This document shows, one piece after another, positions 3,302-21,606 of a stretch of 64,000 nt of DNA (its first letter is position 1; every line of letters starts with the position of its first letter). Where the stretch lies: assembly GCA_965223265.1 (NCBI GenBank), contig OZ244999.1:6208001-6272000 (forward strand). The letters are read 5' to 3'. Under the pieces are notes generated by a model, which was not told the origin of the DNA, ran no database searches, and saw nothing but the letters and a program-made list of their open reading frames with translations. A program made the position numbers and the translations under genes. This DNA is from Planctomycetota bacterium. Lineage in GTDB: Bacteria > Planctomycetota > UBA8108 > SXIK01.

Positions 3302-3654
3302 CGATCTGGGCATAGACCCGGGGCGAGCACCCCCGCAGGCGTGCATAGTGCCCTCAGCCATGGCGCAGTGGTGCCACAGCAAGCCGCAGACAAGAGCTGC
3401 GGAGGACGCCGGGTGCTCACGCCCGAACAGCCACCTGCCAGACGCGGCGCGCCCACGCGATTTGTTGCCCCAGCGCCGACACCGTGCGAGAGAAATTGAC
3501 TAGAGTTAGCAGCGTCAGTATACTCGCAGCGGGAAACTTCTCCGGAAGAAGCACCGGAGAGATGGGTATTCCCGCCGATGGCCTCTCCCCGGCACCCGAA
3601 TCTATCCTTCCGCCTCCTTCGAGACACAACTCGCCAGTTCGTGTGGAGAAATCT

Positions 3655-5937
3655 ATGCTAGCAGCCGATTTATGGCGCTTGTTTCGTCTTGCACTCGTGT
3701 TGATCGCCGTCACCTCAGCACAGATCGTCCTGACAGAGTCCGCCTTCGCTCAGTGCTCGTGCTCGTCGGACGCCGCATTGGGTACTTGTGCGATCCGTGT
3801 ACTGCAACCAGGCGACAACAGTGCACTCGGATCCGACGCCTACCCAGATCAGTTCCCCGGTCCCGGAACGGTAGTTTCAGGCGATAGCGGCGACTTTCTC
3901 TACGTGGCTGATTTCTTCAGCGGTCGAGCCTACGTTTTCGAGTACGTCGTTTCGCCCATCGCCGCGGTGAAAATCGTCGATCGGGTCGTTCCCTCGCCGG
4001 CCGGTACCGCGCAGCTCAGTGGTCTGACTGCCGTGGGCGAGACGCTGATCTGGGCTGCCGGCAACAGTCTCTGGAGCACGAACTCCGAGGGCGGTGAGGT
4101 AGCCGAATTGGGCACGATCAATCTGACAGCAGTCGCCGATGCCATTTCAGCGGCGACGGGCCAGACGTTGAGCGCGGGGGCGCTCGGCGGCATCGTTTAC
4201 CATCCCTCGCGTGAGTCGCTGTGGGCTGTCGATATCGTCAACGACCTTTACTTCGAAGTTCAGCTCGACGGCCAACTCGTTCTCGACGCCGGCGACCGCC
4301 CGAACTTTTTCTTCAACCCGATGCGCGCGCCGCTTGGCGGAGCGTACGGCAACGATCTGACCTATGTGGCCAACGAGCAAGGCGAGTTTTTCGACGTTCT
4401 CGCTGGCCCCCTGAGTGCGGGTCGCCCGAATCATGTGTTTCGCCTGCATGCCGTCGCCGGCGCGGACTTCGAGATCGGCGACGAGACTGGCGTGCGCTAC
4501 GCGCTGGACGATCAGCTCGAGTCGCCCGAATTCCCAACGGGAATCGTCCACTGGCAAGATTCCTGCTCCAGCGGCCAGGGAAGCGAATTTGTTTTCGACC
4601 TCAGTCTCTCCGGCGCATCGCCGAGGCTGATCGAGGTAGCGGGTGATACTCCACAGTTCGGCACCCCTGCAGACTTTCAGTGCACACCGATCTCGGACAC
4701 CTCCGCAGAACTGACTTGGCGAAAAGATCTGCCGTACGAGACGCTGACGATCGTCCGGAGGAACCTCTCGACAGGAGTCGAGACCGAGATCCTATCGACA
4801 ACGTTTGAGGAAGACTCAGGCAGTACGCTCGATGAGGGAATTCCGCCCGGCACCTACGAATATATCGCGACCACCAGCACGGAGACCGCTGACGTCCCCG
4901 AACTGCGCTGCCGCCTAAACATCGGGCGCGGTCGAAGCGTCAACTTGGGCGCGGCCGGCGACAACCCATACGGCGTGACCCTGGCTGACGGCGAAATCGT
5001 CGTCGCCGACTTGAGCGGCACGGCGTCGATTCTCGACTCCGGCCTGCAGGTGCAATCGACCCTTCCGAGTCCGTTCACTGAGTCAGGCACAACGACCGGC
5101 ATCGCCTATCGACCCGCCAACCAGCGCCTCTTCTGGATGCAAGATACCGGTAGCGCCTACTTGCTTGCTGCCACCAACATGGCAGGCGAAGTGCAGGGCG
5201 ACGTGGCTCTGATTGAGAGCCCGCTCAACTTTGTCCGTGGAATGCAGCTCGGAGACGTCGCGTACGATGGCGCCAACGACTATTTTTGGACGGTCGATCG
5301 TCTGACGTCGACCGTTTTTCCGATCTCGCCGTCGGGAACCATCCCGACGCCGTTCGAAACGCAGCAGCTTTCGCTGGGCGAAGGCACCATCCTTGGTGGC
5401 GGCGTCTCGGTGTTTGAGTCGTCGCCAACCTCGGTGACCCTCGATCTCACAGCTGGCACGGTCGATCGCGGTTTCGCGTCGGACTTCGTGCGCGTCGAGT
5501 TCAACCTAGACGACCTCACGTTCACGGAGCGCTTTCGCTTCGATCTTACGGCTTCGTTCGACGCAGCCAGCCCCGGCAGCATCGCTGTGAATGGTGACAC
5601 AGCCTTCGTGACGGCGCTCGATACCGGCGCGGTCTATGAGCTTGCCGTGAGTTCCCGCGATCTACCGTTCTTCCGACGCGGCGACGTCAACGACGACGAA
5701 GCCATCAATATCTCCGATCCGAGCGCGCTCCTTCTGCACCTCTTCCGCAGCGCTCCAGAGCCGACTTGCCCGGCAGCCGCGGACGCCAACCGCGACGACG
5801 CCCTGCAGCTCGCGGACGCGGTTTTCCTCTTCAACTATCTCTTCGTCAGCGGCGAGGCTCCGCCGGCTCCGTTCCCCAGCTGTGGGCCGGATCCAGACAC
5901 TGCACTGGATTGTTCCGCTTCGTCCTGTTCGCCCTGA
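3655..5937 (+). CDS. Large secreted beta-propeller/Fn3-like protein with C-terminal dockerin-like domain
   Basis: ATG 3655 after GGAGA; signal peptide ending AFA-Q; acidic propeller-like repeats (LYVADF, LWAVD, FWTVD). Tail: FRRGDVNDDEAINISDP...AADANRDDALQLADA...PPAPFPSCGPD. Confidence 0.75.
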   Translation: MLAADLWRLFRLALVLIAVTSAQIVLTESAFAQCSCSSDAALGTCAIRVLQPGDNSALGSDAYPDQFPGPGTVVSGDSGDFLYVADFFSGRAYVFEYVVSPIAAVKIVDRVVPSPAGTAQLSGLTAVGETLIWAAGNSLWSTNSEGGEVAELGTINLTAVADAISAATGQTLSAGALGGIVYHPSRESLWAVDIVNDLYFEVQLDGQLVLDAGDRPNFFFNPMRAPLGGAYGNDLTYVANEQGEFFDVLAGPLSAGRPNHVFRLHAVAGADFEIGDETGVRYALDDQLESPEFPTGIVHWQDSCSSGQGSEFVFDLSLSGASPRLIEVAGDTPQFGTPADFQCTPISDTSAELTWRKDLPYETLTIVRRNLSTGVETEILSTTFEEDSGSTLDEGIPPGTYEYIATTSTETADVPELRCRLNIGRGRSVNLGAAGDNPYGVTLADGEIVVADLSGTASILDSGLQVQSTLPSPFTESGTTTGIAYRPANQRLFWMQDTGSAYLLAATNMAGEVQGDVALIESPLNFVRGMQLGDVAYDGANDYFWTVDRLTSTVFPISPSGTIPTPFETQQLSLGEGTILGGGVSVFESSPTSVTLDLTAGTVDRGFASDFVRVEFNLDDLTFTERFRFDLTASFDAASPGSIAVNGDTAFVTALDTGAVYELAVSSRDLPFFRRGDVNDDEAINISDPSALLLHLFRSAPEPTCPAAADANRDDALQLADAVFLFNYLFVSGEAPPAPFPSCGPDPDTALDCSASSCSP

Positions 5938-6430: not shown

Positions 6431-7648
6431 GTGAAAGACGGAATGAAGCGAGCACAGACTCTCCGCCTCGTGGTGCCGTTCGTGGCACTCTGGTTCTGCG
6501 CCTGCGCGGCCACATCGCATCACGGCTCGTCGACACGACGCGCGACAGAGCTGTTTTCTTCCGGGGATTACGCTGCCGCGGCAACGCATTTTCGCGACGC
6601 TGCCGACAGCGCCCGCACCGATGCGGCGCGGTATCGCGCTTTTGTGGGTCTTGGCCGCGCTCAACTTCACGCCGACCAGCCCATGGCGGCACTCCAATCT
6701 CTCTACAAGGCACAGGGCTTCAGCCGCGCCGAACAAGAGTCTGAAGTTTATCGTCTGATCGGTGTCTGCTACCTAGCTACCGGAGACTACAAACTGGCCA
6801 GCAACTATCTGCTCAAAAGGCTGGCGCGTGGTGGCTGGGAGCGCGAAGTCGCTCTCGCGTACACGAGCTTTTGTCTGAGCGAGCTGGGCGACAAGGTCGG
6901 CGCCGCTCGGTATCGACGTAAGCTCGCCTCGCCGCTCTCTCAAAGAGTGAAGGACATCATCGACGGGCGGGACGCCATGACGGTGAAGTCACGCACGGCG
7001 GCGCGCGATCGACACGTGCGGAGCCAGCTGGCAACGATGCGTCGCCCGGTACAGCGCCGCCCCCAAGTCGCCAAACGCCAGCCAAAACCACAGCGACGTC
7101 CTGAGAGCAGGAAACCGCTGTCGATCTTACCCCGCAACTTGTGGAAACCGCGCCCGAGGAAGGCGAACGTCGAACACATGGGGAAGATTTATCGCTTGAC
7201 GATTCATCACAGCGCTGGAGACGCGTTCTGGGAACACGACTTCTCGGCGACTGCGGCGCACATCAAGAACATTCAACGCTTTCACCAGGTCAAGAATCGC
7301 TGGGCGGATATCGGCTACCACTTCATCGTCGACCGCACTGGAAACGTCTGGGAAGGTCGCAAGCTCCACTATCAGGGCGCCCATGCTGGCGGCGTCGCCA
7401 ACCACGGCAACATCGGCATCGTCGTGCTCGGAAACTACACTCGCCAGAAACTCCACCCACGGCAGAGGACACGCCTCGCGACCTTCGTCAAAAGTCTTTG
7501 CGAGCGCTACGGCATACCGGCAAATCGGGTTCACACCCACAATGAGCTGCAGCCAGGTCACACGGAATGTCCGGGCTCGGCCCTATCGCACTTCGTCGCC
7601 GGACTGCGCCGGCACCTACGGGCGTCGCAAATCGCACTCGGCAAGTAA
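6431..7648 (+). CDS. TPR + N-acetylmuramoyl-L-alanine amidase (Amidase_2/PGRP-like), probable lipoprotein
   Basis: Lipobox-like FCAC; TPR helices; TIHHSA, WADIGYHF, GAHAGG, HTHNEL and TECPG motifs with Zn ligands intact. Confidence 0.85.
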   Translation: MKDGMKRAQTLRLVVPFVALWFCACAATSHHGSSTRRATELFSSGDYAAAATHFRDAADSARTDAARYRAFVGLGRAQLHADQPMAALQSLYKAQGFSRAEQESEVYRLIGVCYLATGDYKLASNYLLKRLARGGWEREVALAYTSFCLSELGDKVGAARYRRKLASPLSQRVKDIIDGRDAMTVKSRTAARDRHVRSQLATMRRPVQRRPQVAKRQPKPQRRPESRKPLSILPRNLWKPRPRKANVEHMGKIYRLTIHHSAGDAFWEHDFSATAAHIKNIQRFHQVKNRWADIGYHFIVDRTGNVWEGRKLHYQGAHAGGVANHGNIGIVVLGNYTRQKLHPRQRTRLATFVKSLCERYGIPANRVHTHNELQPGHTECPGSALSHFVAGLRRHLRASQIALGK

Positions 7649-7735
7649 CGTGCGGCCACGGAGCTGAATCCTCAGTGACGCTAGCGACTCGGCGTCCCGC
7701 AGCGACGAAGGTGCCCGCACGCGAGCCCCCGAGGG

Positions 7736-8089
7736 CTAGCGCGAAGCGGTTGACAGCTCGATCACCCGATCCCAGTCGTCGGGCTGCAGCGGATCGTCAA
7801 GCGCCAGCCGGTTGCGGCGCTCGATCCCGCAGCCTTCGCAGACGTGGATGACGAACCACGTCTGCCGCTCCTGATCGATCCGAACCGGCCTCATCAGCCC
7901 TTGGCAGTGCGCAGCACGGTCGCCGGGTACGACGTCAACGTGTCGAGACCAGAGGCAGGCTGGACAGTGGCTGCGAAAGCCGCGACGCAGCGGCTTCACC
8001 TCGACGCCGCAGGCGAGACAAGCGAAGGGATCGTTCCCGCGACCGAGAAAGTTTCGCCGTTCGCCGCTGCGGCGCTCACTTTGGCTCAC
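7736..8089 (-). CDS. RNHCP-domain protein
   Basis: FACLACG...FRSHCPACLWSRHVD..PGDRA..CQGLM..HVCEGCG. Confidence 0.85.
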   Translation of the reverse strand: MSQSERRSGERRNFLGRGNDPFACLACGVEVKPLRRGFRSHCPACLWSRHVDVVPGDRAAHCQGLMRPVRIDQERQTWFVIHVCEGCGIERRNRLALDDPLQPDDWDRVIELSTASR

Positions 8090-8354
8090 GTCGAACTCCC
8101 TGCCGGATCTCCCGCGTTTCCGCACCAGACCATTCCCGCCAGCCCGAACCCCAGGCCAACAGCACAACTATGGGCAAACAAATGACTTAACACCATCGAG
8201 AAGCGACCACAAAAAGCGCTGTGATGACGATTTTCCTTCAGAGCCGTCCGGGCGTCGAGGTACGACCTTACAGAAGGCGACGGCGACAGCTCCGCGCCGA
8301 CTCGCTCAGATGCTAAAATAACCGCTTCCCCGCCGATCGAAAACCGAACAGCGC

Positions 8355-8927
8355 ATGAACTCCCCCGACGCCCAAACGCGAGCCAGAAAGTCCGAAGACT
8401 GCGAGCTCGTCCATCGAACCCGCCGCGGCGAGACGGCTGCCTTCGAGGCTCTCATCGCCAAATACCAACGCGCTGTCTTCAACATCGCGCTCTACAAGAG
8501 TAAGAATCATTTCGACGCCGAAGATCTAGTCCAAGACATCTTTCTCGCCGCGTACCGCGCCCTCGAGACGCTTCGTTCGCCGGAGAACTTTTCGAGCTGG
8601 CTGTTCGGGATCGCATACAACCGCTGCCACAAATGGTTCCAGCGCGAGCGAACGAAAGTCGTCAAGTTTGAAGTGCTGCGGCAGCGCGTTGCACGCGAGA
8701 CACGCCTACAGCAGCGTGCGAACTCCAGTGAGGACGTGCCGCTGTCCGAGTCACTGGCGCGCGTGCCGACCGAGATCCGCACGGTGCTTCGTTTTAAATA
8801 CCTCGAAGGATTGAGCTACCAAGAAATCGAAGAGCGAATGGGAATCAATGCGCACCGGATCGACTATCTGATTCGCAAAGGCAAACAAATGCTCCGTGAG
8901 CGCATGACGAAGAGCGAAGAACGATGA
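8355..8927 (+). CDS. ECF sigma-70 factor
   Basis: DAEDLVQDIFL, FSSWLFGIAYN (region 2) and EGLSYQEI (region 4). ATGA overlap with the anti-sigma gene. Confidence 0.92.
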   Translation: MNSPDAQTRARKSEDCELVHRTRRGETAAFEALIAKYQRAVFNIALYKSKNHFDAEDLVQDIFLAAYRALETLRSPENFSSWLFGIAYNRCHKWFQRERTKVVKFEVLRQRVARETRLQQRANSSEDVPLSESLARVPTEIRTVLRFKYLEGLSYQEIEERMGINAHRIDYLIRKGKQMLRERMTKSEER

Positions 8928-9940
8928 CGAAGCGAAGCGACGACAACCTCAGTAAGCCGAACTTCTCCTTGGACGACTCCGCATCGGGCAAGGCAGATCA
9001 CCTTGACCCGAGCGACGATGCGTTCGACTCGTCACTGGTCGATCTGACCGCCCGCCGCTGCGATGCGCTGCGCTCTCACTATCATCACTACGTCGAGAAT
9101 GAGCTGGACCCGCTGCGAGTCCGGATGGTGGATGCCCACCTCGGAGCTTGCGACAAATGTCGCGAGGAAGTGGAGTACCTCCAGCTCGAGAAGCTGTGGG
9201 TTATGGAGACCGTGCTCGACGCGCCAGAGCTCTCGGACCGCCTGACGGAGAAGATCGTTGCGGCTGTTCATGCAGAACGCCGCGACCTCAACTCACGGTG
9301 GTTTTTGCGCGTCAGCGCGAGCATTGCGGCTGTAGCGCTTGCCGGCGTGCTCGCCGTGTTCGCCGGAGGCGCCTCGATCGAGACGCCCGAAATCGTCTCC
9401 GAGAAGCAGATACACCTGCCGCCCGGAACCATCCACGTACGCTCTGCCGGTAAAAGTCGCGACAGAAACGAGCTCCCGCGAGCTCGGCTCGTCCATTACA
9501 ACGCGTCATCGGGCATCTCGACGACGCATGGCTACCCTTGGACACTTCCGGCACCGCGCCGCCATGCAGCTCGCTGCGACTACCCGGCCTCGGCGTACCG
9601 CGTCGCTGTGCGGGTCAAATCGCCGCGCGACCGTATCCGCAAGCTCACTCCGCTCGCCTCGCGCGCAGACGTCGTCGTCTTCGTGCGGATGCCTCGGCGA
9701 GGACGTATCAGCTTGAGGGATACGGTCAACGTCGCTCTACGTTTCGCTCGCGGCACTCCTGCGGTCGAACGCGATCTCGAGTCGTGCGAGCCAGACCCGA
9801 ACGCGGACGGCAAACTGGATATCGATGACATCGCATACGGTCTCCAGGTACTATACGGGGCTCAAACGCCGGAGGCCGTCGCCTTGGGTGACGAGTCATC
9901 GCAGGAGAACGAGTGCGATGCCGCGTGCGCTCGTGCGTGA
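8924..9940 (+). CDS. Zinc-finger (HxxxCxxC) transmembrane anti-sigma factor with C-terminal dockerin/EF-hand-like motif
   Basis: HLGACDKC ZAS motif; one TM segment (SIAAVALAGVLAVFAGG); tail DPNADGKLDIDDIAYGLQVLYG. Confidence 0.82.
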   Translation: MTKRSDDNLSKPNFSLDDSASGKADHLDPSDDAFDSSLVDLTARRCDALRSHYHHYVENELDPLRVRMVDAHLGACDKCREEVEYLQLEKLWVMETVLDAPELSDRLTEKIVAAVHAERRDLNSRWFLRVSASIAAVALAGVLAVFAGGASIETPEIVSEKQIHLPPGTIHVRSAGKSRDRNELPRARLVHYNASSGISTTHGYPWTLPAPRRHAARCDYPASAYRVAVRVKSPRDRIRKLTPLASRADVVVFVRMPRRGRISLRDTVNVALRFARGTPAVERDLESCEPDPNADGKLDIDDIAYGLQVLYGAQTPEAVALGDESSQENECDAACARA

Positions 9941-10075
9941 CGCTCCAATGCGTCCATCAACCATTTGAGGATGCCTGGAGGTCGAACTCAGCGGCGACGC
10001 GACTTATCATTCGGCCCTTACGAGTTCGATTCAAACAAGATGAACGTGTACCTATCGTTCGGAGGATCTTTGAAC

Positions 10076-11542
10076 GTGACTTTCCCTGAAAAACATCGAC
10101 AAGAACGAAGCCCTCGTCGCCACGCTCGTTCTTTCGTCGTGACCGCGCTGCTTTTCGGCTGCGCGCTGTTGCTAGTGAGCCAGCCGCCGACCGTGAGCTC
10201 GGCGAGCGAAGGCGAAAGCACGAAGCGATTCTTCTTGGCATACAGCGTCAACAACGCAGGTTTCACCGACACCTGTGGCTGACCAAAGAAAAAGATCAAG
10301 CTGGGCAGTTTGCCCAGACGCATGACTTACCTCCAGCAGCTTCGTGGCTTCGGTGTCCCAACACTCTTGGTTGACGGTGGCAACGTTTTCTATCGTACGC
10401 TCACGAAGAAAGCACCCGATCGAGGCAAAGAGCTGACGCTGTGGAACCACGCTCGCGTCATTCTCAATGCGTACAACCTACTCGGCTATCAGGCGGTCGC
10501 CGTCGGCCCGGAGGACCTCCAGCTTGGTTTGAACCGCCTGCAGGAACTGGCCAACAAGGCACACTTTCCGTTTGTCTGCGCAAACTTGGTGGACAAGAAG
10601 ACGAAACAACCGTATTTCGAGCCCTATACGATCGTGAACGTCAACGGTTTGCGCGTCGGCGTCTATGGCATGCTGCAACAGCGGCTCAATCCAACGATCC
10701 GCGAGCGGGCCATTCCGGACGGCGAAATCCTACCGCCGATCGAAACGACGAAGCGAATTGTTGCGGAGATGAAGGCGAAGTGTGACGCCATCATCGGTCT
10801 TTCCCACCTGCACGAAGAGACCAACTCCAAAATCCTCGAGGAAGTCCCAGAGATTACCGCACTCGTCGATCCGGCGTCGCGCCATGGGTTCAAGACCGTC
10901 TGGATCCACTCTGAGGAGGACTACAGCCGGGACTTCGGCGGACGTCCGCGCCTGCGCATCGATGGGCAAGGCTCGCGGATCGGCATCGCTGATCTCACCG
11001 TGTCAAAGTCGAGCAAGAAACCTTCGAGTTATACGGGATACCATGTACCGATCGAGCCGCACATCATGCGGCACCCGGTGATGACTGAATTGCTGACATT
11101 CGTGCGTGCTGGTCGCGACTACCCTCTTGATCGCAAGCGCGATGCCCATTCAATGTATCCGTTCGACGACGCACTCGGAGCAGCGACGTGCGGCTCATGC
11201 CATCCCGAACAACTCGAGTTCTGGAAGTCGACGTCCCACGCCTCAAATTTCCACACCCTTGAGGCGACCGGCGACCAAGCCAACTCCGATTGCGTTGGCT
11301 GCCATTCGCTTGGCTATGGCGTCACATTCGTGAACGCCGCCGACGCGAAGAATTTCAAGGAAGTGCAGTGCGAAAACTGCCACGGTATTGTACGGGGCCA
11401 CGCCGAGGACCCGGAGAAGCACCGATTCGGGGAGGTCGGCGAACGCACGTGCGTCGGCTGTCACAACAAGGATTACACACAGAAAGACTTCGACTACGAG
11501 GACGCGCGTCCGCGAGCGTCCTGCCCGACTTCGGCCAAGTAG
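10076..11542 (+). CDS. Predicted selenoprotein: secreted UshA/5'-nucleotidase-like domain (CGU motif, Sec at TGA 10280-10282) fused to tetraheme cytochrome c
   Basis: ORFs 9965-10282 and 10310-11542 are in frame and separated only by the TGA. Readthrough gives NNAGFTDTCG-U-PKKKIKLGSLPRR, vs paralog NNSGYIDVCG-C-KHKQVRQGSLTRR. GGAGGA RBS at 10061-10066 precedes GTG 10076. Signal peptide present; 4 CxxCH (CGSCH, CVGCH, CENCH, CVGCH). Confidence 0.88.
10301..10317 (+). promoter_or_regulatory. Candidate bacterial SECIS hairpin
   Basis: CTGGGCA-GTT-TGCCCAG perfect stem starting 18 nt after the UGA, with G in the apical loop about 25 nt downstream. This fits the general bacterial SECIS model. No equivalent stem in the Cys paralog. 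Confidence 0.75.
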
Positions 11543-11575
11543 TCGCTGCGAACCCGCGTCAAGGAGTCAAGGACC

Positions 11576-13072
11576 ATGCGAAAATCAGCAGTCGTCGTGA
11601 CGCTTTTCGGCTTGACGGTTGTGCTGTCAGGAAGCGGTCAAGTCGAGGCAGAAAAACCAGCGCGATTCACCCTCGTCTACAACGTCAACAACTCCGGATA
11701 CATCGATGTCTGCGGCTGCAAGCACAAGCAGGTCCGCCAGGGAAGTCTGACGCGACGTTCGAGTTTCCTCAAACAGCTCCACGCGACGGGACGAAACCTA
11801 CTCCTCCTCGATGGCGGCAGCTCGCTCTTCAAGGTCGGCGAACTGATCAAGAAAGAACAGCGCGACGAAGCGATCCGCAAGGCTCAGCTCATCGTCGAAG
11901 CCTACAATCGGATGGGATACCATGCCATGGCTGTGGGCCCAGCCGATCTTTACGCCGGACTGGATGAAACTCTCGCCCTCAGGAAGAAGGCAAAATTCAA
12001 ATTCCTATCCGCGAACGCCTACGACAAGAACACGGGCAAGCTCCTCTTCGAGCCGCATGCTGTATTCGAAGTCGGCGGCGCGAGAGTCGGCGTGATCGGC
12101 CTCACGCTGCAGACGATTTCAAAACCGTTCTTACGGCGCATCGGCTCGCGATTTGAAGTGCGTGACGCAGAGACCGCTCTTAGGGAGTCTATCGAAGCCC
12201 TCAAACCAAAGACGGACTCGCTGATCGTCTTGTGCCACGAACGAGAAGAGGTCAGTAAGAAGTTCGCTGCAGCATTCCCGGAAATCCACATGTTGGTCGA
12301 TCCTTACATTCAGTACGGCAACCACCACACTTGGATCAAGAAACACGAGTGGCTCGACCGAGTCGAGGAGACTGTCTTCCTGCGCAGTGACGGACAAGGC
12401 GCTCGACTCGGCGTCGTTGACGTCGAGCTCAAACATGGTAGCCGTCCGCTCGTCTCACGCATCGACCTGGAAGATCTCGCTGCCGCGGTCGCCGCTGCCG
12501 ATGCCAATGTCACCGACGCCGACAAGGAGAAGCTGATTTCCTGGCGTGCGTTCAATCCCTTCGATTTTCAGCGCGTCTCGCTCGAGCCGCATCACCTCTC
12601 CGACCCCGACATCGATCGTCTCGTCGACGAATGGAAAAAGAATGTCGACCCGAGCAAAGTAGCGCGGCTAGAGGCAGAGCTGCCGCGGCGCGCTGAGTAC
12701 GCGACCGCAGACAAGTGCAAGGGCTGCCACGAAACGCAATACGACTGGTGGAAAAAGACGCGTCATGCGACAGCCTTCGCCACGCTGCAGCGCACAGGCG
12801 ATCATCAGCGCTTCGACTGTATTGGCTGCCACACGTTGGGTTACGGCGAAGCATTTCTCAACACGACCGCGGTCGGCGAATTCGCAGATGTGCAGTGTGA
12901 GTCGTGTCACGGCACGAACCCGAAACATCTCGAGAGCCCGGCGACCCATAGCTACCGCAAGATCACTAAGCACGATTGCCTTGTCTGTCACAACAAAGAG
13001 CAAACGCTAAAAGACTTTGCGTTCGCAGCGGCGCGGCGGAGAATCGCCTGTCCGAGCTCGAAGAAGTCATAA
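11576..13072 (+). CDS. Secreted UshA-like domain (CGC motif) + tetraheme cytochrome c; Cys paralog of the upstream selenoprotein
   Basis: Signal peptide; VCGCKH, LLLDGGS, AMAVGPAD, FLSAN, DGQGARLG; 4 CxxCH (CKGCH, CIGCH, CESCH, CLVCH). Confidence 0.88.
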   Translation: MRKSAVVVTLFGLTVVLSGSGQVEAEKPARFTLVYNVNNSGYIDVCGCKHKQVRQGSLTRRSSFLKQLHATGRNLLLLDGGSSLFKVGELIKKEQRDEAIRKAQLIVEAYNRMGYHAMAVGPADLYAGLDETLALRKKAKFKFLSANAYDKNTGKLLFEPHAVFEVGGARVGVIGLTLQTISKPFLRRIGSRFEVRDAETALRESIEALKPKTDSLIVLCHEREEVSKKFAAAFPEIHMLVDPYIQYGNHHTWIKKHEWLDRVEETVFLRSDGQGARLGVVDVELKHGSRPLVSRIDLEDLAAAVAAADANVTDADKEKLISWRAFNPFDFQRVSLEPHHLSDPDIDRLVDEWKKNVDPSKVARLEAELPRRAEYATADKCKGCHETQYDWWKKTRHATAFATLQRTGDHQRFDCIGCHTLGYGEAFLNTTAVGEFADVQCESCHGTNPKHLESPATHSYRKITKHDCLVCHNKEQTLKDFAFAAARRRIACPSSKKS

Positions 13073-13099
13073 CGAGACGACAACTGCGAGACCGCCTGG

Positions 13100-14164
13100 A
13101 TGAACCAAAAAGGGCCCCGTGCGGTGGTCATCGGGGGAGGCGTGATCGGCCTGGCCGTCGCACGTGAGCTCGAAGCGTTGGAGTTCAACGTCACTGTGCT
13201 CGAACGGCGACAGTTCGGGCGTGAGGCTTCGTATGCGGCGGCCGGCATGCTCGCGCCGGAACTCGAATTCACGCCCGACGACGAACTCTTCACGATGGCT
13301 TCGGAGTCGCTCGCGCTCTACCCCGACTTCGCGGCGACGCTCGAGGCCGAAGTTTCGCAAATCGTCGACCTACGACTGAGTGGAATCGTTCGACCTCTCA
13401 TGGGGTCGCCCGCGGCTGGAGAGGTAGGAGAGTCGGAGGCAACGCATTCCTACCCAAGCGTCGAACGACTGGAAGGCAATGCGCTGCGCCGATTGGAACC
13501 GGAGTTGGCCAACGAATTCACGACGGCTGAGCTTTTTCATGGCCACGGCAGTGTCGACAACCGCGCCCTCGTCGACGCGCTTGCTCGGTCGTGCCAGTGC
13601 CGCGGCGTCGAGCTGCGCGCCGCTACGACCGCTACTGAAGTCACGAGTAAAAACGATCGCGTCACGGGTGTCATCACCGACGGCGGCCCGATCGCGGCGG
13701 ACATGGTGGTCAACTGCGCCGGCGCATGGGCCAGCGATGTTGCTGTCGATGGAGCGGCCGTCGCAACGCATCCGGTCAAAGGTCAGATGTTGCTCGTTCG
13801 CTGCCCGCAGCCGGTCCTCGAACACGTGATCTACTCGCACTTGGTCTACCTCGTGCCTCGTAGTGACGGCCGAGTCGTGGTCGGCACAACGGTCGAGGAA
13901 CGCGGTTACAATAAAGACGTGGAAGCGTGGGCACTCGAGCGACTTCTGAAGGGTGCTCTGACGGTGTGCCCGGCCCTCAAGGAATCGCGCTTCGTCGAAG
14001 CTTGGGCTGGGCTGCGACCTCAAATCGCTCAAAAGAGTCCGCAAATCTGTGCCGCCGGTCCGCTGGGCTACTTTCTCGCTTGTGGGCACTACCGAAACGG
14101 CGTACTGCTGGCGCCGATCACAGCGAAACGAGTTGCCGCATTAGTGCGGCAAGCCAGCGATTGA
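13100..14164 (+). CDS. thiO: Glycine oxidase / FAD-dependent D-amino acid oxidase family
   Basis: VIGGGVIG, ASYAAAGMLAP, PVKGQ, WAGLRP, GHYRNGVLLAP. Confidence 0.85.
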   Translation: MNQKGPRAVVIGGGVIGLAVARELEALEFNVTVLERRQFGREASYAAAGMLAPELEFTPDDELFTMASESLALYPDFAATLEAEVSQIVDLRLSGIVRPLMGSPAAGEVGESEATHSYPSVERLEGNALRRLEPELANEFTTAELFHGHGSVDNRALVDALARSCQCRGVELRAATTATEVTSKNDRVTGVITDGGPIAADMVVNCAGAWASDVAVDGAAVATHPVKGQMLLVRCPQPVLEHVIYSHLVYLVPRSDGRVVVGTTVEERGYNKDVEAWALERLLKGALTVCPALKESRFVEAWAGLRPQIAQKSPQICAAGPLGYFLACGHYRNGVLLAPITAKRVAALVRQASD

Positions 14165-14196
14165 CCCCTACTTCGCAGCCACGACTTCTCGCCGTC

Positions 14197-14892
14197 TCAG
14201 CTACCTGCCGCGACTTCCTCGCGTTTGGGCTCTGCGGATTCCTCAGAGGCAGTTGACGACGCTTCCTGCTCCGGTGTGCTGCTGGGATCAGAAGCGCTCG
14301 CAGACTTGTTGGTCGCCGACTCCTCCTGCGAGAAGTGCTTTTTGTACAGCTCGTCGCTACGTTCCAGCGAGTCTTTCACTCGCTGCAGGCGGCCACCGTC
14401 AGCAGCAAGGAGCTCGGGATCGGCGCTGTCGAGAAAAGCTCTCATGTCGACGACCGCCTTCTGCGTCTCGTCAACGTAGGAACAGGCCGTTGTCACGGCG
14501 TCATTGATGGCGTCACGGATGTCCGTGAGATCGTCGCCAGCGCGCAGAGTGCACGGTCGACGCCAGGAGCCGTTGACCAGCTCACCAAAATAGATCTTAA
14601 AACGATGGATTGGACCACAAAACTTGAACGAGTAGAGAATGCCGACCGACGCTGCGAACGGCACCCCGACGCCCACTGAAAGTAGAAACTTCTGGTACAG
14701 AACCCGCTTCAACTCAGCAACAATCAGGTCGGAACTTGTGTACTGCGGAATGCCTTCGGCCAAGCTCCAGAGGGCGGCGAGGCTGAGCTGGAAATTGATC
14801 AGGAGCACAAGGCACGTCACCAAAAGCGTGACAAAAACGATCTTGAGCTGGAGATCAACGCGGATCAGCTTCTTCTTTCGTCGGTTCTTCAA
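14197..14892 (-). CDS. Two-TM membrane protein with HAMP-like segment (hypothetical)
   Basis: TTG 14892 after GAGGAGG; RRKKKLIRVDLQLK, two TM segments, GPIHRF...LRAGDDL. Confidence 0.65.
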   Translation of the reverse strand: MKNRRKKKLIRVDLQLKIVFVTLLVTCLVLLINFQLSLAALWSLAEGIPQYTSSDLIVAELKRVLYQKFLLSVGVGVPFAASVGILYSFKFCGPIHRFKIYFGELVNGSWRRPCTLRAGDDLTDIRDAINDAVTTACSYVDETQKAVVDMRAFLDSADPELLAADGGRLQRVKDSLERSDELYKKHFSQEESATNKSASASDPSSTPEQEASSTASEESAEPKREEVAAGS

Positions 14893-15150
14893 CTTCGACC
14901 TCCTCGGAATCGCAGCGTTCGTGATCGCGCGATCACGATGCGGTACGGCGAGCTTCGAGACATTCAGTCCACGAATTACGTATCGGTCAGCAATGAACGA
15001 CGCTTGATTCCGAATCGTCGAGGTCAAGCGAGGAGCAGCAAAGAAGAAGTTGTGTCAGCGCGATAACGAGAAAGCGCGTCGCGTTATCGGAGACGGGTGG
15101 TCTCTCATCGCTTGGGAGACAACCCGGTAGCGGACCTGACCTCAAGACCG

Positions 15151-16170
15151 TCAACCAAAACGTTCCGCAAAACAGTCGTAGAGCGCGTCGAGCGACTGCA
15201 CTCGATCAGGATCGATACAGAGCACCACCTGATCGCGTTGCCGAAACGCGCCGTGGCGACGCTGGCGAGTGAATTCTACAACAACCTCAGGAACCTCTGC
15301 GGGCCTCATTGCGGCGACCTTCGCAAGGCTTTCAGGCGCGTCATCAGCGAGGCTAAACGTGACTCCTTGCGGCGAACGTGGCTCCAATCCACGGAGTGGT
15401 CGGACCAGGTAATCGCCCTCCTTGAAAAGCCGGTAGTTCGCCGAGCCGCGGGCGCTCGGACGGTGCGAGACATGGACCGGGTGGAACAGATGGAGCATGC
15501 GACTGGCTCGAGAGCCATCCGCCACCTTGACCCCGACACGCCGCAGGCGTCGGGCGATATCTTCGTCCTCGTAGCCCCACCCTTCGAAGCGCTCATCGAA
15601 GCCGTTGACGCGCTCGAAGTCTTGACGCCACACCGCAGCATTCGCGGTCGTCAACTTGGGACGCACCTTGAGACGTGTGCGCGAGTAGAGCTGATTCTTC
15701 AGCCACAGAGTCGCCAGTGCCCGCCGGGAGCGACGCGCAAGTCGTTGGAAGAGCCCGAGGTCGACGCTGCCGCGCTGCAGAACGATTGACGTCTCCTGCT
15801 CCGTCAACCAACATCGCGCGCCCACAGTCGCCACTCCAAGGCGGCACTTGCACGCATGGAACACCAAACTGTCGGCGAAGGGCACACAGTCACCATCGGT
15901 GAACAGGAGTACATCGCCTGCGGCCGCCTCACGCACAGCTCGATTGCGCACTGCGGCAAGACGAAAGCCACGATCCTCCTGCCAAACGTGCTTGAGCGCA
16001 AATCGCGCCACGCGCCGGTGCGCGTCGATCACCTCGCGGGTGCGCTCGTCGGACCCGTCGTCGGCCACAACCACCTCGAAGTCGTCAGGGTTGACGACTT
16101 CGTCGTAGCCACGGAGCACGACCGCAAGCGCCGAAGGTCGGTTGTAGGTCGACAGGATCACGGAAATCAC
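15151..16170 (-). CDS. Glycosyltransferase family 2
   Basis: ISVILSTYNRP, VADDGS, FTDGDC, NGFDERFEGWGYEDED. Confidence 0.9.
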   Translation of the reverse strand: MISVILSTYNRPSALAVVLRGYDEVVNPDDFEVVVADDGSDERTREVIDAHRRVARFALKHVWQEDRGFRLAAVRNRAVREAAAGDVLLFTDGDCVPFADSLVFHACKCRLGVATVGARCWLTEQETSIVLQRGSVDLGLFQRLARRSRRALATLWLKNQLYSRTRLKVRPKLTTANAAVWRQDFERVNGFDERFEGWGYEDEDIARRLRRVGVKVADGSRASRMLHLFHPVHVSHRPSARGSANYRLFKEGDYLVRPLRGLEPRSPQGVTFSLADDAPESLAKVAAMRPAEVPEVVVEFTRQRRHGAFRQRDQVVLCIDPDRVQSLDALYDCFAERFG

Positions 16171-17703: not shown

Positions 17704-20700
17704 TTGCCACTTTGGCAACGACCCGCGGGAATCCTTTCAGCGGCAACGGCGACGAGAACTTCTGTGGACCCTTCTGCGGCGGCGCCCTCGGGCGCTCAGA
17801 TCCCGGCACGATACACCGTCCTCGGCGACTTGGGTGGAGGCGGCATGGGGCAGGTGTATCGCGTCCGCGACCACTTCACAGGTCAAGTTGTGGCACTCAA
17901 AGTTGTGCGCGAGACCTCCCCGGAGGACGTTCAGCTCTTTCGGCGGGAGATCGTCACGCTCAGCTCCCTCTGGCACGAGTCGATTGTGCGCTTCTTCGAC
18001 GCCGGTGTCTGCGGTGACGATTTCTACTTCACAATGGAGCTCGTCGAGGGTTCGTCTCTTGAGCAGTTCATCAGCCCTGCCGCGGCTGCGGCTGCCGATG
18101 TGAAATGGATCTTGGCGGTCGTCGTTCAGCTCCTGGACGCACTCAGCCATCTCCACGAGAGAGGCTTGCTGCACCGCGACATCAAGCCAAGCAACGTCGT
18201 CGCGTTGACGGCGCCGCCCCAGAGCGCCCTCCAGTCCACAAGCGCGGCGCAAATCAAATTGATCGACTTCGGCCTAGCTGCCCAGCGACGCTCCATCGCC
18301 TCCGGACCAGACGCGAGCGTCGGCACACCAGTCTACATGGCGCCGGAACAACTACGCGGCCACACGACGATCGACGAACGCGCCGACCTCTTCTCCGTCG
18401 GCGCAATGGCCTATCACCTTCTCACGGGGTCTCCCCCGCGAACCTCGCTGCGGGATGCGGTCGCCGGCGAGCCACCGATCGACCGCTATCCGCAAGACTG
18501 CCCGAGGCGAGCCGTCGACCTCATCCGTGAGCTGCTTGCGAACGAGCGACATGAACGCCCAGCGTCCGCCGCAGCTGCGCGTGAACGCCTACTCGCCGCG
18601 CTGGAGCCCGAAGACCGGCGCCGCATCGAAGCGCCGCGTATCCGTTTGCCATCGTTCGTCGGTCGTCAAGGCGAAGTCGCCGCGCTCACCAACGTCGTGC
18701 GGAGCGCTGCCGACGGTCGTAGTGGATTCGTTCGGCTGACAGGAGATCGCGGAAGCGGCAAGTCCTGGGTGCTCCACCACAGCGGTCTCAAGGCGGTCGC
18801 CTTCGGCGACCTCGGGACACTCACCGTCGGCTGTCGATTTCGTGCCGACGACTCCGGGGCAGGCCTGCGTGAGCTCTATTCCCAGCTCCTGGCGCACTTC
18901 GACGAGCATTCCGCCTCTGACGCACTCCGCGACCATCACGGCGCCGAGGCAGTTGACGACTTTGTCTCGACGTTTGGAGTGCAGACGCGGCCAGACGCTA
19001 CGACGACGGCGACGTCGCTGGCCGATGACATCCCCCCACACGTGCGTCGAGAACGGCTGCTCACTCTTGCCATCGAAATCGTCCGCGCGGCAAGCGGGCG
19101 ACAACCCCTACTTCTCGTCGTCGACGATGTGCATCACGCCGGCGAGTTCGCGCTCGAGTTTTTTTCTCGCTTGCGGCATTCGATCGGCACCATGCGCGTC
19201 GCGGTCGTGCTCAGTCATCGCCCACAACCCGAGAGCTCCGCCGTACAGATCGATTCCACGCCGTTCGCGTCGTTTCTTGAGCAACTAGACGATGTCGACG
19301 TCGTGACACTGCCTCCGCTGACTGACGGCGAGGTGAGTCAACTGATCGACTCGATGCTCTTCCCGTCAGTGATCTCCAAAACATGCCGCGACGCGCTGAC
19401 CCAACGCTCCGGGGGGTGGCCTGGTGCAGTCGTCAGCGACATCCAGCTGGTGTGGAGCAGGCGACGACTCCGATTCCAGGACGGTGCGTGGTGCTGGGAC
19501 CGGAAGGAGAGCGCAGGTGCCGACGCGAGTCTCGAGAAAGTCGAGCTCGACGGCCTCACAGACCTCGAGCGCGACGTGCTCCTCGGCGTGAAAGTCCTTG
19601 GCCCCCCGGTGACGAGACTTCATCTGGCAACGTTCGTGACGATCCTCAGAGAGCTCTCGACCTCATCAGGTCGTGACATAGCGACAGCCGAAGTGAACGA
19701 CGATGGGCGCCTCGACACCACGGCAGCACGCCTGAGCGCCGAGCGAATCGAAGCAGTCGGCGGCAGAGTCGCAGCACAACCGGCGGTTCAGAGACTGATC
19801 TCACAAGGCCTCCTTGTCGAGGCAGAAGACGGGATTGACATGTCTCCCACGCTGAGGGACACGAAGCTCGAATCGACTCGCCAGCCGAGACTTCTTGAAG
19901 TCGCAGGTGCGCAGGCACTCATCGCGCTGCATGCAAGCGACCTCGAGGCGAACGCTCTGAGAATCGCCCAACTCCTCCACGCCGGCGGCGAAATCGCTAT
20001 AGCGCACGGCTACTTCGTACTCTCCGCTCGCAGCGCGAGTAGGCTCTACGCCAACAGTCGCGCGCGCCACAGCTATCAGGCAGCCATCGAAACGGCCCCC
20101 GATGTAGGACGCCAACGTGCGGTCTACATCGAGTTCGGCGAGTTTCTGCTGCGTCTTGGCGAATACGACGAAGCGCTTCGAGCATTCCAGGACTCCAGCG
20201 GGGTCGACATCGAGACGTTCGACGCAGGACGCACACTGGCAGCAGACGTCGACCCGGGGATGCTCGAGCGCATCGGCAAGGTACTCCACTTACAAGGTCA
20301 CTACGAAACGGCGCTACGCGTATTCGAAACCTATCTCGAGCTCGCAGGATCCGACTCGATACATCTTGCGAAGGCGCAGCTTCGTTTGGGAGAGATTCAC
20401 TTCGAAAGCGGTGACAGCCAACGCGCGAGCGAATGCTTCGAACACAGCCTCAAGCTCTACGAGTCGCTGGGTGACGCGCCGAACATCGCCAAGGTGCAGA
20501 GCCAACTCGGTCTTGTCGCTAAGCAGCGAGGAGACATCCGCGCAGCAATCGAACGGTTCGAGAGCGCGCTGGAGAACGCAGAGCGAGCCGGTCACGCCGT
20601 CGCGACCGCCACGGCTCTGAACAACCTCGGAAACATCCACCGCGCACAAGGTGACGATGAGCTCGCTTTGGACTTCTTACGGCGCTCAGTTGAATCACGC

Positions 20701-21606
20701 CGCCGGGCTGGTGACCGTGGCGGCGTCGCGATTTCTTTAACCAGTATCGCGCAGGTGCATTTTTATCGAGGCGAATTCAAGAACGCAGTTGAACGCAATG
20801 AAAGCGCGCTTCGTGTCTTTCGTGAAGTTGGCAACCAGAAGGGCGTCCTCGTGGCCGGCTGCAATCTGGCTGAGTCGCAGCGCATGGTCGGCGATTTCAA
20901 ATTGGCACGAGAGCAAACTGAACAAAACCTTCAACTCGCCGACGATCTTAAGATGACGTCGATTCGGCCAGCAGCCCTCACAAGCCTCGCCAACTTGGAG
21001 GTGGACATCGGCAACTATGGCGCTGCGGTCGAGATTCTCGAGCGCTGCCTGAGCGAGCTACCGCCGGGCAAGCTGCCACAGCACCGCCTCGAAGCGCTCA
21101 CCGCGTTGAGCTGGGCGCACTTACGCCTGAGGGATTACTCAAGAGCACGCCAGCTGTTCGACGACTGCGAGTCGGCGCTTCAGTCGAGCAACGCGAATGA
21201 AAAACGTGGCGAACTGACTGCCGTGCGCGTTCGCCTCGAGAACGAAGCCGGTGACGCCGAAAGGGCCGTCAAGGTTGGCCGTCAGTTTCTCGAGCACACG
21301 GAGTTCGGCGTCGAGCGCTTTGGATCGGCGTGTCTACGGCGCGAGCTCGGAAGAGCGTTCCGGAGTGTTGGGCCGGAGTGGGCTGATCAGACCGAGAAGC
21401 ATCTCTTCGCAGCTCGAAAGGAGTTCCAAGACATGTCGAGCCCCCACAACGTCGCTGAAATCGACTTCGAGATCGGCGTCTACTGGGGTCTCTTTGGCGA
21501 GAACGAAGAGGCCGGGGAATTCTTCAGCCGCTCAAAGCAGACTTTTTTGCGTCTCAACGCGCCACTGCGCTCCGCTTTGATCGGCAAATCGAGGAGTCGC
21601 GCATGA
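17704..21606 (+). CDS. Ser/Thr protein kinase + STAND/AAA ATPase + TPR repeats
   Basis: [36 protein letters not shown]; Walker A GDRGSGKS and Walker B LLLVVDD; TPRs (ALNNLGNIH). Start position uncertain. Confidence 0.88.

Follow-up and report, generated by a model that had tools for sequence, protein, structure and literature searches.

The question raised by the locus described here is what is done by two related proteins that have kept the fold of a metal-dependent nucleotidase and lost most of its metal ligands, that carry selenocysteine (Sec) in one copy and cysteine (Cys) at the same position in the other, and that end in a four-heme cytochrome domain. The locus occupies positions 8355 to 14164 of the window, i.e., the whole 64,000-nt stretch of contig OZ244999.1 (assembly GCA_965223265.1, Planctomycetota bacterium; positions 6,208,001 to 6,272,000 of the forward strand) that was analysed. 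A sequence-only reading had proposed that five co-oriented, tightly spaced genes form an undescribed periplasmic redox system, and the coordinates and family assignments confirm that the five genes lie together on the plus strand. The conserved unit, however, consists of four of them, encoding (i) an extracytoplasmic function (ECF) sigma factor, (ii) a membrane-spanning zinc-binding anti-sigma (ZAS) factor, (iii) the Sec paralog and (iv) the Cys paralog, and not of all five. With respect to function, we give an even chance to the view that the pair are periplasmic thiol/selenol oxidoreductases wired to hemes.

The Sec paralog (10040-11542, plus strand) and the Cys paralog (11576-13072, plus strand; 498 aa, with C-G-C at the site in question) are 36% identical, and in both a hydrophobic N-terminus leads into an N-domain of ~300 residues, after which come a linker and four CxxCH motifs. 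The start of the Sec paralog is uncertain, as TTG 9965 and ATG 9971 are also in frame. Both proteins are predicted to be exported, on the basis of their hydrophobic N-termini and of the attachment of c-type hemes, which takes place outside the cytoplasm; a Tat signal and a lipobox were considered for the Sec protein and rejected, neither being conserved in its orthologs. The two proteins score 275.9 (Sec) and 299.8 (Cys) against a cutoff of 275 on the NCBIfam equivalog NF041198, 'UshA-like (seleno)protein' (UshA_like_PCGU), a model of 519 positions that spans the N-domain and the hemes and to which protein P0125 aligns over positions 2-517 with 466.8 bits. The CxU/CxC signature of the family is present as TCGU...LGSLPRR and VCGC...QGSLTRR. 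The term 'undescribed' is therefore too strong, since both proteins pass the family cutoff and the family appears as 'COG0737, UshA-like, CxU', with 76 Sec and 92 Cys sequences, in the Global Ocean Sampling (GOS) selenoproteome (Zhang & Gladyshev 2008; PMC2398784), as 'UshA-like protein, CxU' in PMC9312934, and under the same name with accession NF041198 in PMC13188914. In the accessible parts of this literature the family has been tabulated since 2008 with no function given. The window pair shares the architecture and the position of the CxU/CxC motif with the rest of the family. It differs in that its scores are barely above the cutoff and in that, in the Planctomycete clade, more of the metal ligands have disappeared, the variants 'T/PCGU...PKKKIK' and 'VCGCKxK' occur, and a C-terminal Cys-Pro stands where most members have His.

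A search with the N-domain returned 4860 cluster representatives at E <= 0.001, 937 of them at E <= 1e-10. The best 150 relatives comprise four-heme CGC forms, heme-less CGC forms of 300-400 aa, which reach 136-249 bits on NF041198 and thus remain under its cutoff, and canonical DxHG/GNHE nucleotidases without CGC; many in this set start just after the Sec codon, i.e., they have been truncated by the gene caller. A scan of one genome per species gave 621 pattern matches, 548 of which encode a relative, and 73 loci were kept for comparison. One strict protein signature identified 67 genes in 55 sources (41 with U and 26 with C).

The metallophosphoesterase/SoxB-type fold claimed by the sequence-only reading has indeed been retained. 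The Cys paralog alone matches UshA (1ush, 1.5e-10), in an alignment that sets its 'MAVGPADL' opposite the 'MAIGNHEF' of UshA, and a profile of 67 family members matches, among solved structures, the 5'-nucleotidase 2z1a (2.6e-38), UshA (6.5e-33) and SoxB (2wdc, 1.2e-23). The profile places CGU/CGC in the loop between the strand of motif I and the G-G-x-A-R-R helix, and a Lys/Arg-rich loop directly follows the CGU/CGC motif. The likeness to UshA and other 5'-nucleotidases (1ush, 2z1a, CD73) extends to the N-terminal calcineurin-like fold, the linker helix and the GG-x-ARR, D-x-G and SAN motifs common to both. It stops at the active site and at the C-terminus, where the window pair lacks the dimetal ligands and the catalytic His and four hemes replace the nucleotide-binding C-domain. 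In UshA, structural work has shown that the C-domain swings onto the N-domain, and by analogy the heme domain could do the same. SoxB belongs to the same fold family, is periplasmic and acts on sulfur bound to a carrier cysteine; unlike the window pair it needs a dimanganese site, and the pair is far below the SoxB cutoff and has no sox context.

The loss of the metal site can be followed motif by motif, the ligand roles of motifs I to V being those known from structural work on UshA. At these positions the window Sec form has N-N-A, G-N, G-P-E-D, a retained His and D-P-A-S, and the window Cys form has N-N-S, G-S, G-P-A-D, a retained His and D-P-Y-I, the GGHSH region being aligned by the profile with VDPAS and VDPYI, respectively. 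The motif IV His is the only dimetal ligand that remains in the window pair. The proposed changes of DxH to N-N-A/N-N-S and of GNHE to GPED/GPAD, and the loss of GHxH, are thus borne out, and the classical ligands are largely gone. A table of the Planctomycete clade with 21 rows (11 Sec and 10 Cys) shows that this is general there. In motif I, all 21 rows have N or H in place of the Asp, as compared with D in 23 of 46 other rows, and His is absent throughout the 21 from its own position, which is not conserved elsewhere either. The motif II Asp is D in nine of the 11 Sec forms (N in the window) and replaced by S in eight of the 10 Cys forms. The motif III Asn position is E, P, S or A, with Asn in a single row (P-E and P-A in the window), GH of motif V has become [DE]-P in 20/21 rows, and the motif IV His is retained in 20/21. 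The C-G-(U/C) motif, on the other hand, stands out as the invariant feature of the N-domain: across 67 family rows the invariant residues are G80, the U/C position, G89 and G114, with C79 in 66 rows and G74, R93, D112, A152 and N182 at 90% or more. Judged from this alignment, the Cys-x-Sec/Cys pair is the only set of candidate catalytic residues common to the whole family.

The heme part is equally constant. A tetraheme, c554-like domain is found at approximately 11177-11542 in the Sec paralog and 12716-13072 in the Cys paralog (PF13435 Cytochrome_C554, 5.3e-12 and 7.7e-12; 47.0 and 46.4 bits vs a gathering cutoff of 20.8), each paralog has exactly four CxxCH motifs, and these are invariant in all 67 signature genes. 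The heme part of the family profile matches 6i5b (3e-28), which we take to be OcwA with its c554-like modules, and cytochrome c554 (1bvb, 4.9e-21). The tetraheme module of the window proteins resembles both, and differs from them in being compact (~120 residues) and fused to an enzyme-like domain.

That the first of the two proteins contains Sec is supported by several comparisons. Its first open reading frame (ORF) stops at the TGA at 10280-10282 and resumes in the same frame to 11542; reading the TGA as U gives ...SVNNAGFTDTCGU PKKKIKLGSLPRR..., and the Cys paralog has ...NVNNSGYIDVCGC KHKQVRQGSLTRR... in the same region, with the motif ...NNSGYIDVCGC.... In the alignment the U falls opposite Cys in the paralog and in 26 Cys-type homologs. 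C-G-TGA with 330 or more sense codons after it was found at 43 sites, of which one, in L043, was spurious and dropped; the remaining 42 genes, from 41 of the 73 loci and the window, all encode four CxxCH motifs and span Planctomycetota, Acidobacteriota, Thermodesulfobacteriota, Eisenbacteria, Latescibacterota and other phyla. Ten Planctomycete orthologs have TGA at the same codon as the window gene. A hairpin resembling a selenocysteine insertion sequence (SECIS), CTGGGCA-GTT-TGCCCAG, pairs perfectly at 10301-10317 (plus strand), and counting pairs in this fixed register, 21 nt after the U of UGA, allows the Cys genes to serve as a control. All seven pairs are present in seven of the 11 Planctomycete Sec genes, and six or more pairs in 8/11 Sec genes vs 0/16 Cys paralogs (Mann-Whitney p = 1e-5, a value that overstates independence because the rows are related to one another). 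When the 11 Sec sites of Planctomycetes were folded together, RNAalifold gave five consensus pairs, and one of these covaries (GC 6, CG 4, GG 1). In other phyla, a hairpin over the L-A-R-R-A-S codons is complete in 17 of 30 Sec genes and in none of 10 Cys genes, and two wobble-wobble pairs covary. The pair count replaced a comparison of folding energies, which did not separate Planctomycete Sec from Cys sequences (-10.45 vs -11.14 kcal/mol, p = 0.92); likewise, the 72-nt fold after the UGA could not be distinguished from shuffles (z = -0.64), and RNAalifold found no consensus structure for the 31 non-Planctomycete Sec sites. On these comparative grounds, the in-frame TGA goes beyond what chance would produce and is read as a selenocysteine codon.

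An indication of the chemistry comes from relatives in which the family domain is linked to a thiol-disulfide protein. In five loci (L048:135-2086, L062:7431-9273, L063:7504-9321, L066:1668-3635 and L069:78-1953), belonging to Thermodesulfobacteriota, 'Deltaproteobacteria' and Thermodesulfovibrionia assemblies and hence to at least two phyla, a gene of 390-400 aa with EPCGC and four hemes is followed after 12-110 nt by a dsbA-like gene, whose product is exported, has the CxxC site F-Y-C-x-x-C, matches Pfam DSBA (9.3e-12) and has DsbA proteins as its best PDB relatives (2e-08). When the 821 ORFs of the loci were searched with a profile of the five dsbA-like neighbours, no other copy turned up, so that the association amounts to 5/5 in the EPCGC subclade and 5/73 overall. 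The link also exists within single chains. P0093 (1207 aa) contains, in this order, a UshA-like CEC domain, a DsbA-like region (DSBA 1e-05, 25.8 bits vs a cutoff of 25.6; Thioredoxin_4 2.5e-05), a UshA-like CGC domain, four CxxCH motifs and ...RVVH. Among the 99 proteins that match P0093 at E <= 1e-10, eight have the whole architecture (P0093 and P0218-P0224; ~1184-1208 aa), seven of these with CxC in both UshA-like domains by pattern and the eighth with CNC at the first site. A further 21 (748-850 aa) cover its first 61-65% and lack hemes, and in 17 (P0242-P0246, P0248-P0256, P0258-P0260) four CxxCH motifs are followed by a DsbA-like 'DCPYG' region, with an N-terminal ...FLEVCGC...GGVARR ahead of the hemes in all five that were inspected; the remaining matches are ordinary nucleotidases. 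In many of the fusions the DsbA-like part has the single-Cys 'DCPYG' rather than CxxC. In P0054 (634 aa) an AhpC/TlpA-like CxxC domain is fused with the same tetraheme module, which is present twice and terminates both times in F-x-[FY]...H; as far as domain composition goes, a thiol domain of a second kind is here wired to hemes. The search with the window N-domain found no fused relatives of greater length, which is weak evidence.

Within the window, the four conserved genes are closely packed. The sigma gene (8355-8927, plus strand; 190 aa) overlaps the anti-sigma gene (8924-9940, plus strand; 338 aa) by 4 nt (ATGA), and 33 nt separate the Sec from the Cys paralog. No terminator-like sites were found on the plus strand within 7600-15200, and a scan of the locus for sigma-70 promoters and terminators gave nothing above shuffles. 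The four genes probably form one operon with a promoter upstream of the sigma gene. This arrangement is kept, in the order of the window, in 10 of 15 Planctomycete-type loci (L001-L007 and L010-L012). Two others (L008 and L014) have the sigma, anti-sigma and CGC genes only, L009 has the tandem Sec/Cys pair on a contig that ends too near to show the upstream genes, the L013 contig is too short to judge the gene order, and L015 has no sigma gene within 8 kb. Sigma homologs lie upstream of family genes in 12 loci altogether. The prediction of a conserved gene order therefore holds for four genes in 10 loci and fails for the adjacency of the fifth. The putative promoter has the exact form TTCCGA-N16-GGTACT in seven of the 73 loci, once in each and always just upstream of the sigma gene, as compared with the ~0.1 exact matches that, by our estimate, chance alone would give in ~0.9 Mb when both strands are counted. 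In the window there is a candidate ECF-type copy with two mismatches to this consensus, TTCAGA-N16-GGTACG, at 8237-8264 (plus strand), 91 nt upstream of the sigma start codon. L004-L007 and L012 share a further conserved block, CATG-x-TATACT-x-CT-x-AGGAAGGTG-x-T-x-CTGGCCCG, at ~60-130 nt before the sigma gene; it is located between the motif and the start codon and may be a housekeeping promoter or leader element.

Beside the gene order, the Sec signals, the family membership, the ligand loss and the conservation, which are observed, we infer a redox cycle, a link to the hemes, an inducing signal and a cooperation between the paralogs. Upon a signal from the envelope, the anti-sigma factor would let go of the sigma factor, which would transcribe its own operon, including the genes of both exported proteins. 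The Cys-Gly-Sec/Cys pair would then cycle between the dithiol or selenol-thiol state and the disulfide or selenenylsulfide state with a periplasmic thiol or a thiol-reactive sulfur or selenium compound, and would exchange electrons with the four hemes and thence with the cytochrome chain; Sec would speed the exchange step, and the two co-translated paralogs would act together. CGC motifs are known to act as redox-active disulfides in Erv2 and in CGC peptides. In this scheme the hemes would stand in the place of quinone, and the proteins would work like DsbB or VKOR, which regenerate DsbA and reduce quinone (described in PMC11208910). The analogy is functional only. It draws on the dsbA-like gene directly after the family gene in five loci and on the domain fusions in dozens of proteins; unlike DsbB and VKOR, to which it has no homology, the family is soluble and heme-based instead of membrane-bound and quinone-based, and no dsbA gene lies beside the window pair. 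The redox repurposing of the fold proposed by the sequence-only reading thus receives indirect support from the invariance of CxU/CxC, the ligand loss, the dsbA-like neighbours and the fusions, while the parts of that proposal concerning novelty and the fifth gene fail. The specifically DsbB-like function is on balance doubtful. Likewise, it is only tentatively that we put forward the proposal in its full form, namely a new periplasmic redox class in which a metal-free nucleotidase/SoxB fold carries a Cys-Gly-Sec/Cys site wired via four c-hemes for disulfide or sulfur/selenium chemistry, would be a soluble, heme-based counterpart of DsbB, VKOR and DsbD, and in Planctomycetes would form an ECF-controlled Sec/Cys hetero-pair with the distal ligand of one heme changed from His to Cys; the balance is against its being correct in every part.

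Several observations weigh against the interpretation of the pair as heme-wired thiol/selenol oxidoreductases. In many of the distant members the Asp of motif II and the His of motif IV have been retained together with a motif V that resembles GGH, so that a residual metal site is possible in the wider family. It is a distant subclade, together with the fusions, that supplies the dsbA link, and none of it stems from the Planctomycete clade; neither the surroundings of the Planctomycete loci nor the window ORFs scanned contained a DsbA-like ORF, and the 21 ORFs directly beside more distant family genes included no recurrent partner, the neighbours being heterogeneous. To our knowledge, electron transfer from heme to disulfide has little precedent. 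A heteromer cannot be obligatory, because the sigma-linked loci L008 and L014 have the Cys form only. Finally, the promoter copy of the window is not significant alone, as 87 of 100 shuffles give at least two such matches, and it carries weight solely because it lies at the equivalent place upstream of the sigma gene.

Of the other explanations, the one that survives best holds that the Cys-x-Sec/Cys pair is a ligand, either of a soft metal (Cu, Ni, Fe) or of heme iron, and that catalysis takes place there, for example on sulfite, thiosulfate, tetrathionate or selenite. It is prompted by the heme ligation. Apart from those of the CxxCH motifs, the 67 rows have just two invariant His residues, H400 and H454, for four hemes, and a third conserved position, residue 9 after the C-terminal F-x-[FY], alternates between Cys (34 rows) and His (26 rows), with other residues in seven; at least one heme is consequently without an obvious distal ligand. 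At this third position, His is found in 24 of 30 non-Planctomycete Sec forms, and every one of the 21 Planctomycete-clade rows, as well as 10 of the 16 remaining Cys forms, has Cys-Pro; the codons of the window pair are 11522-11527 and 13049-13054 (plus strand), one near the C-terminus of each paralog. The alternation suggests that the residue is an axial heme ligand and that the window proteins may have a His/Cys-ligated heme; comparison of the aligned rows suggests that an axial ligand may have switched from His to Cys in the Planctomycete clade. Hemes with His/Cys ligation occur in the sulfur enzymes SoxAX, TsdA and DsrJ. The partial metal site of the distant members would also fit a ligand role. 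Against it, the heme-less relatives of 300-400 aa keep CGC, so that this motif can do its work without a heme on its own chain; in the fusions, G, E, D, R or K can stand between the two Cys residues; and the DsbA-type link points to thiol exchange. We therefore regard a ligand role as possible, albeit rather unlikely, and retain thiol/selenol exchange as the preferred reading.

The next explanation concerns the relation between the two proteins and not their chemistry. The sequence-only reading had allowed that they could be alternatives for selenium-replete and selenium-limited growth, and the identical architecture with Sec and Cys at the same position would indeed suit isoenzymes, of which Sec/Cys sets exist in methanogens. 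The operons of L008 and L014 imply that the Cys form can stand alone, and unlinked Sec/Cys pairs occur in other phyla: the Eisenbacteria-type locus L052 has Sec and Cys versions (genes near 3917 and 8118) that are ~4 kb apart and not in tandem, and in another Eisenbacteria-type assembly the two versions are on different contigs (L028 and L029). In the Planctomycete clade, however, the two genes probably belong to one operon and are 0-33 nt apart (0-10 nt from the Sec stop to the Cys start in most tandem loci), hence would be made together, and they have diverged to 36% identity with clade-specific conserved residues beside the active site (UPKKKIKLGSL in Sec vs CK[HR]K[EK]VRQGS in Cys forms). 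A quick maximum-likelihood tree of 57 rows, in which other phyla are represented by Sec forms only, groups the 27 Planctomycete sequences in one clade (SH-aLRT 100). Within it, 16 Cys forms (the window and 15 orthologs) form a single clade (SH-aLRT 96), and the Sec forms make up two groups that branch in parallel with the Cys clade. It follows from this mirrored branching that the duplication is old and that both copies have been inherited together; as dated by the tree, the tandem duplication predates the divergence of the sampled Planctomycetes. Fusions with two UshA-like CxC domains in one chain also speak against interchangeable isoenzymes. The operon spacing and the ancient divergence together make the selenium-dependent alternation less probable, and we judge it clearly unlikely; the co-translation, the old mirrored divergence and the two-domain fusion chains suggest instead that the paralogs act together.

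A third possibility is that the pair are redox sensors that signal to the periplasmic domain of the anti-sigma factor and not effector enzymes. The sigma factor has regions 2 and 4 only (Sigma70_r2 5.3e-17, r4_2 6.3e-09; TIGR02937 87.6 bits vs a cutoff of 42.9), and its gene is coupled to that of an anti-sigma factor with the H-x3-C-x2-C motif (zf-HC2 24.8 vs a cutoff of 22.2). In 10 aligned orthologs of the latter, the zinc motif H72-x3-C76-x2-C79, C46, and W126, A130 and A131 of the hydrophobic membrane segment are invariant, as are C288, D291, D295, G296, D302, C331 and C335 of the periplasmic domain, where three invariant Cys residues thus surround a dockerin/EF-hand-like, Asp-rich loop (Dockerin_1 matches the anti-sigma factor of L007 with 5.7e-4). 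This domain could be a thiol- or calcium-sensitive sensor. Its Cys residues, and the fact that the pair is always co-encoded with the sigma and anti-sigma genes in this clade, are what a signalling role would lead one to expect; yet most family members elsewhere lack a sigma/anti-sigma pair, and four hemes and Sec would be costly for a sensor, so that we think this role quite improbable. Finally, that the pair are still 5'-nucleotidase- or SoxB-type hydrolases of a phosphate or sulfur ester, with an unrelated or structural heme domain, agrees with the clear homology of the N-domain and with the Lys/Arg-rich loop and is nevertheless very improbable, given that the window pair has other residues in place of both ligands of motif I, the Asp of motif II, the Asn-His of motif III and the His of motif V, that neither Metallophos (PF00149) nor the substrate-binding 5_nucleotid_C domain (PF02872) was found by Pfam at E <= 0.01 in either protein, that the Sec and Cys forms score 61.9 and 56.2 bits on the UshA equivalog PRK09558 (cutoff 600) and 36.4 and 53.8 bits on SoxB TIGR04486 (cutoff 550), and that the NCBIfam scan of 44 window ORFs found no sox genes.

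The fifth gene of the locus (13100-14164, plus strand), 27 nt after the Cys paralog, encodes a true ThiO glycine oxidase (TIGR02352 equivalog, 294.5 vs a cutoff of 250.8). Its product begins with MNQKGPRAVVIGGGVIGLA, a flavin adenine dinucleotide (FAD) fold with GxGxxG and no signal peptide, and is taken to be cytoplasmic because the protein starts directly with the FAD-binding motif. A ThiO homolog follows the pair in L001 and L002 only, i.e., in two of the 73 loci and two of the 12 that are sigma-linked; elsewhere the downstream genes are variable and include a TraT-like protein, a thioesterase and unknowns, and clustering of all 821 ORFs of the loci revealed lineage-specific synteny only. 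The gene is probably co-transcribed with the pair. As a member of the periplasmic system ThiO was rejected, contrary to the sequence-only reading, being rarely adjacent, devoid of a signal peptide and a genuine glycine oxidase.

The gene after ThiO (14197-15027) is on the minus strand, and the flanking genes, encoding an amidase/TPR protein, an RNHCP protein and a beta-eliminating lyase, are syntenic housekeeping genes. The closest relatives of the window are Planctomycetota assemblies, and the rest of the 64 kb is ordinary chromosome with housekeeping genes throughout. Within it, Rfam at gathering thresholds gave no match, ARAGORN found no tRNA, and the ORF scan found no selA, selB or selD. 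At 17704-23378, the genes for a Ser/Thr kinase of 1300 aa, which contains TPR repeats, and for a sigma-54-dependent activator (21603-23378) overlap by 4 nt and look like a kinase-enhancer-binding-protein pair. A protein of 817 aa that belongs to no known family (3484-5937) has a C-terminal dockerin-like repeat, a motif of the kind seen in the anti-sigma factor, and near it lies a gene for a plastocyanin/halocyanin-like copper protein (1372-2337).

It should be mentioned that some taxon labels among the loci are odd. L072:682-2136 is a bacterial-style Sec gene with an in-ORF hairpin on a contig labelled as a Thermoplasmata archaeon, and L010 and L061 are labelled Proteobacteria and Enterobacteriaceae, with proteins that nest with Planctomycete or other environmental clades. 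These labels are probably due to binning or labelling errors or to gene transfer. As regards novelty, the tandem Sec/Cys pair under an ECF sigma factor was not found in the accessible parts of the printed literature, although selenoproteome supplements may list members or contexts. Within the literature searched, the ECF-linked Sec/Cys tandem operon, the promoter-like motif, the link to dsbA and to DsbA-like fusions, and the His/Cys switch appear to be new.

In summary, a widespread family that has been catalogued since 2008 can now be given a concrete and testable putative function, heme-linked thiol/selenol redox chemistry in the cell envelope, on the basis of its ligand loss, its invariant CxU/CxC motif, and its dsbA neighbours and fusions, and the ECF-controlled Sec/Cys operon provides a defined genetic handle on it in Planctomycetes. 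If the proposed function is true, the family would constitute a third route, besides DsbB and VKOR, by which periplasmic disulfide chemistry is linked to respiration, and it would be a clear case of a hydrolase fold turned into a redox enzyme.

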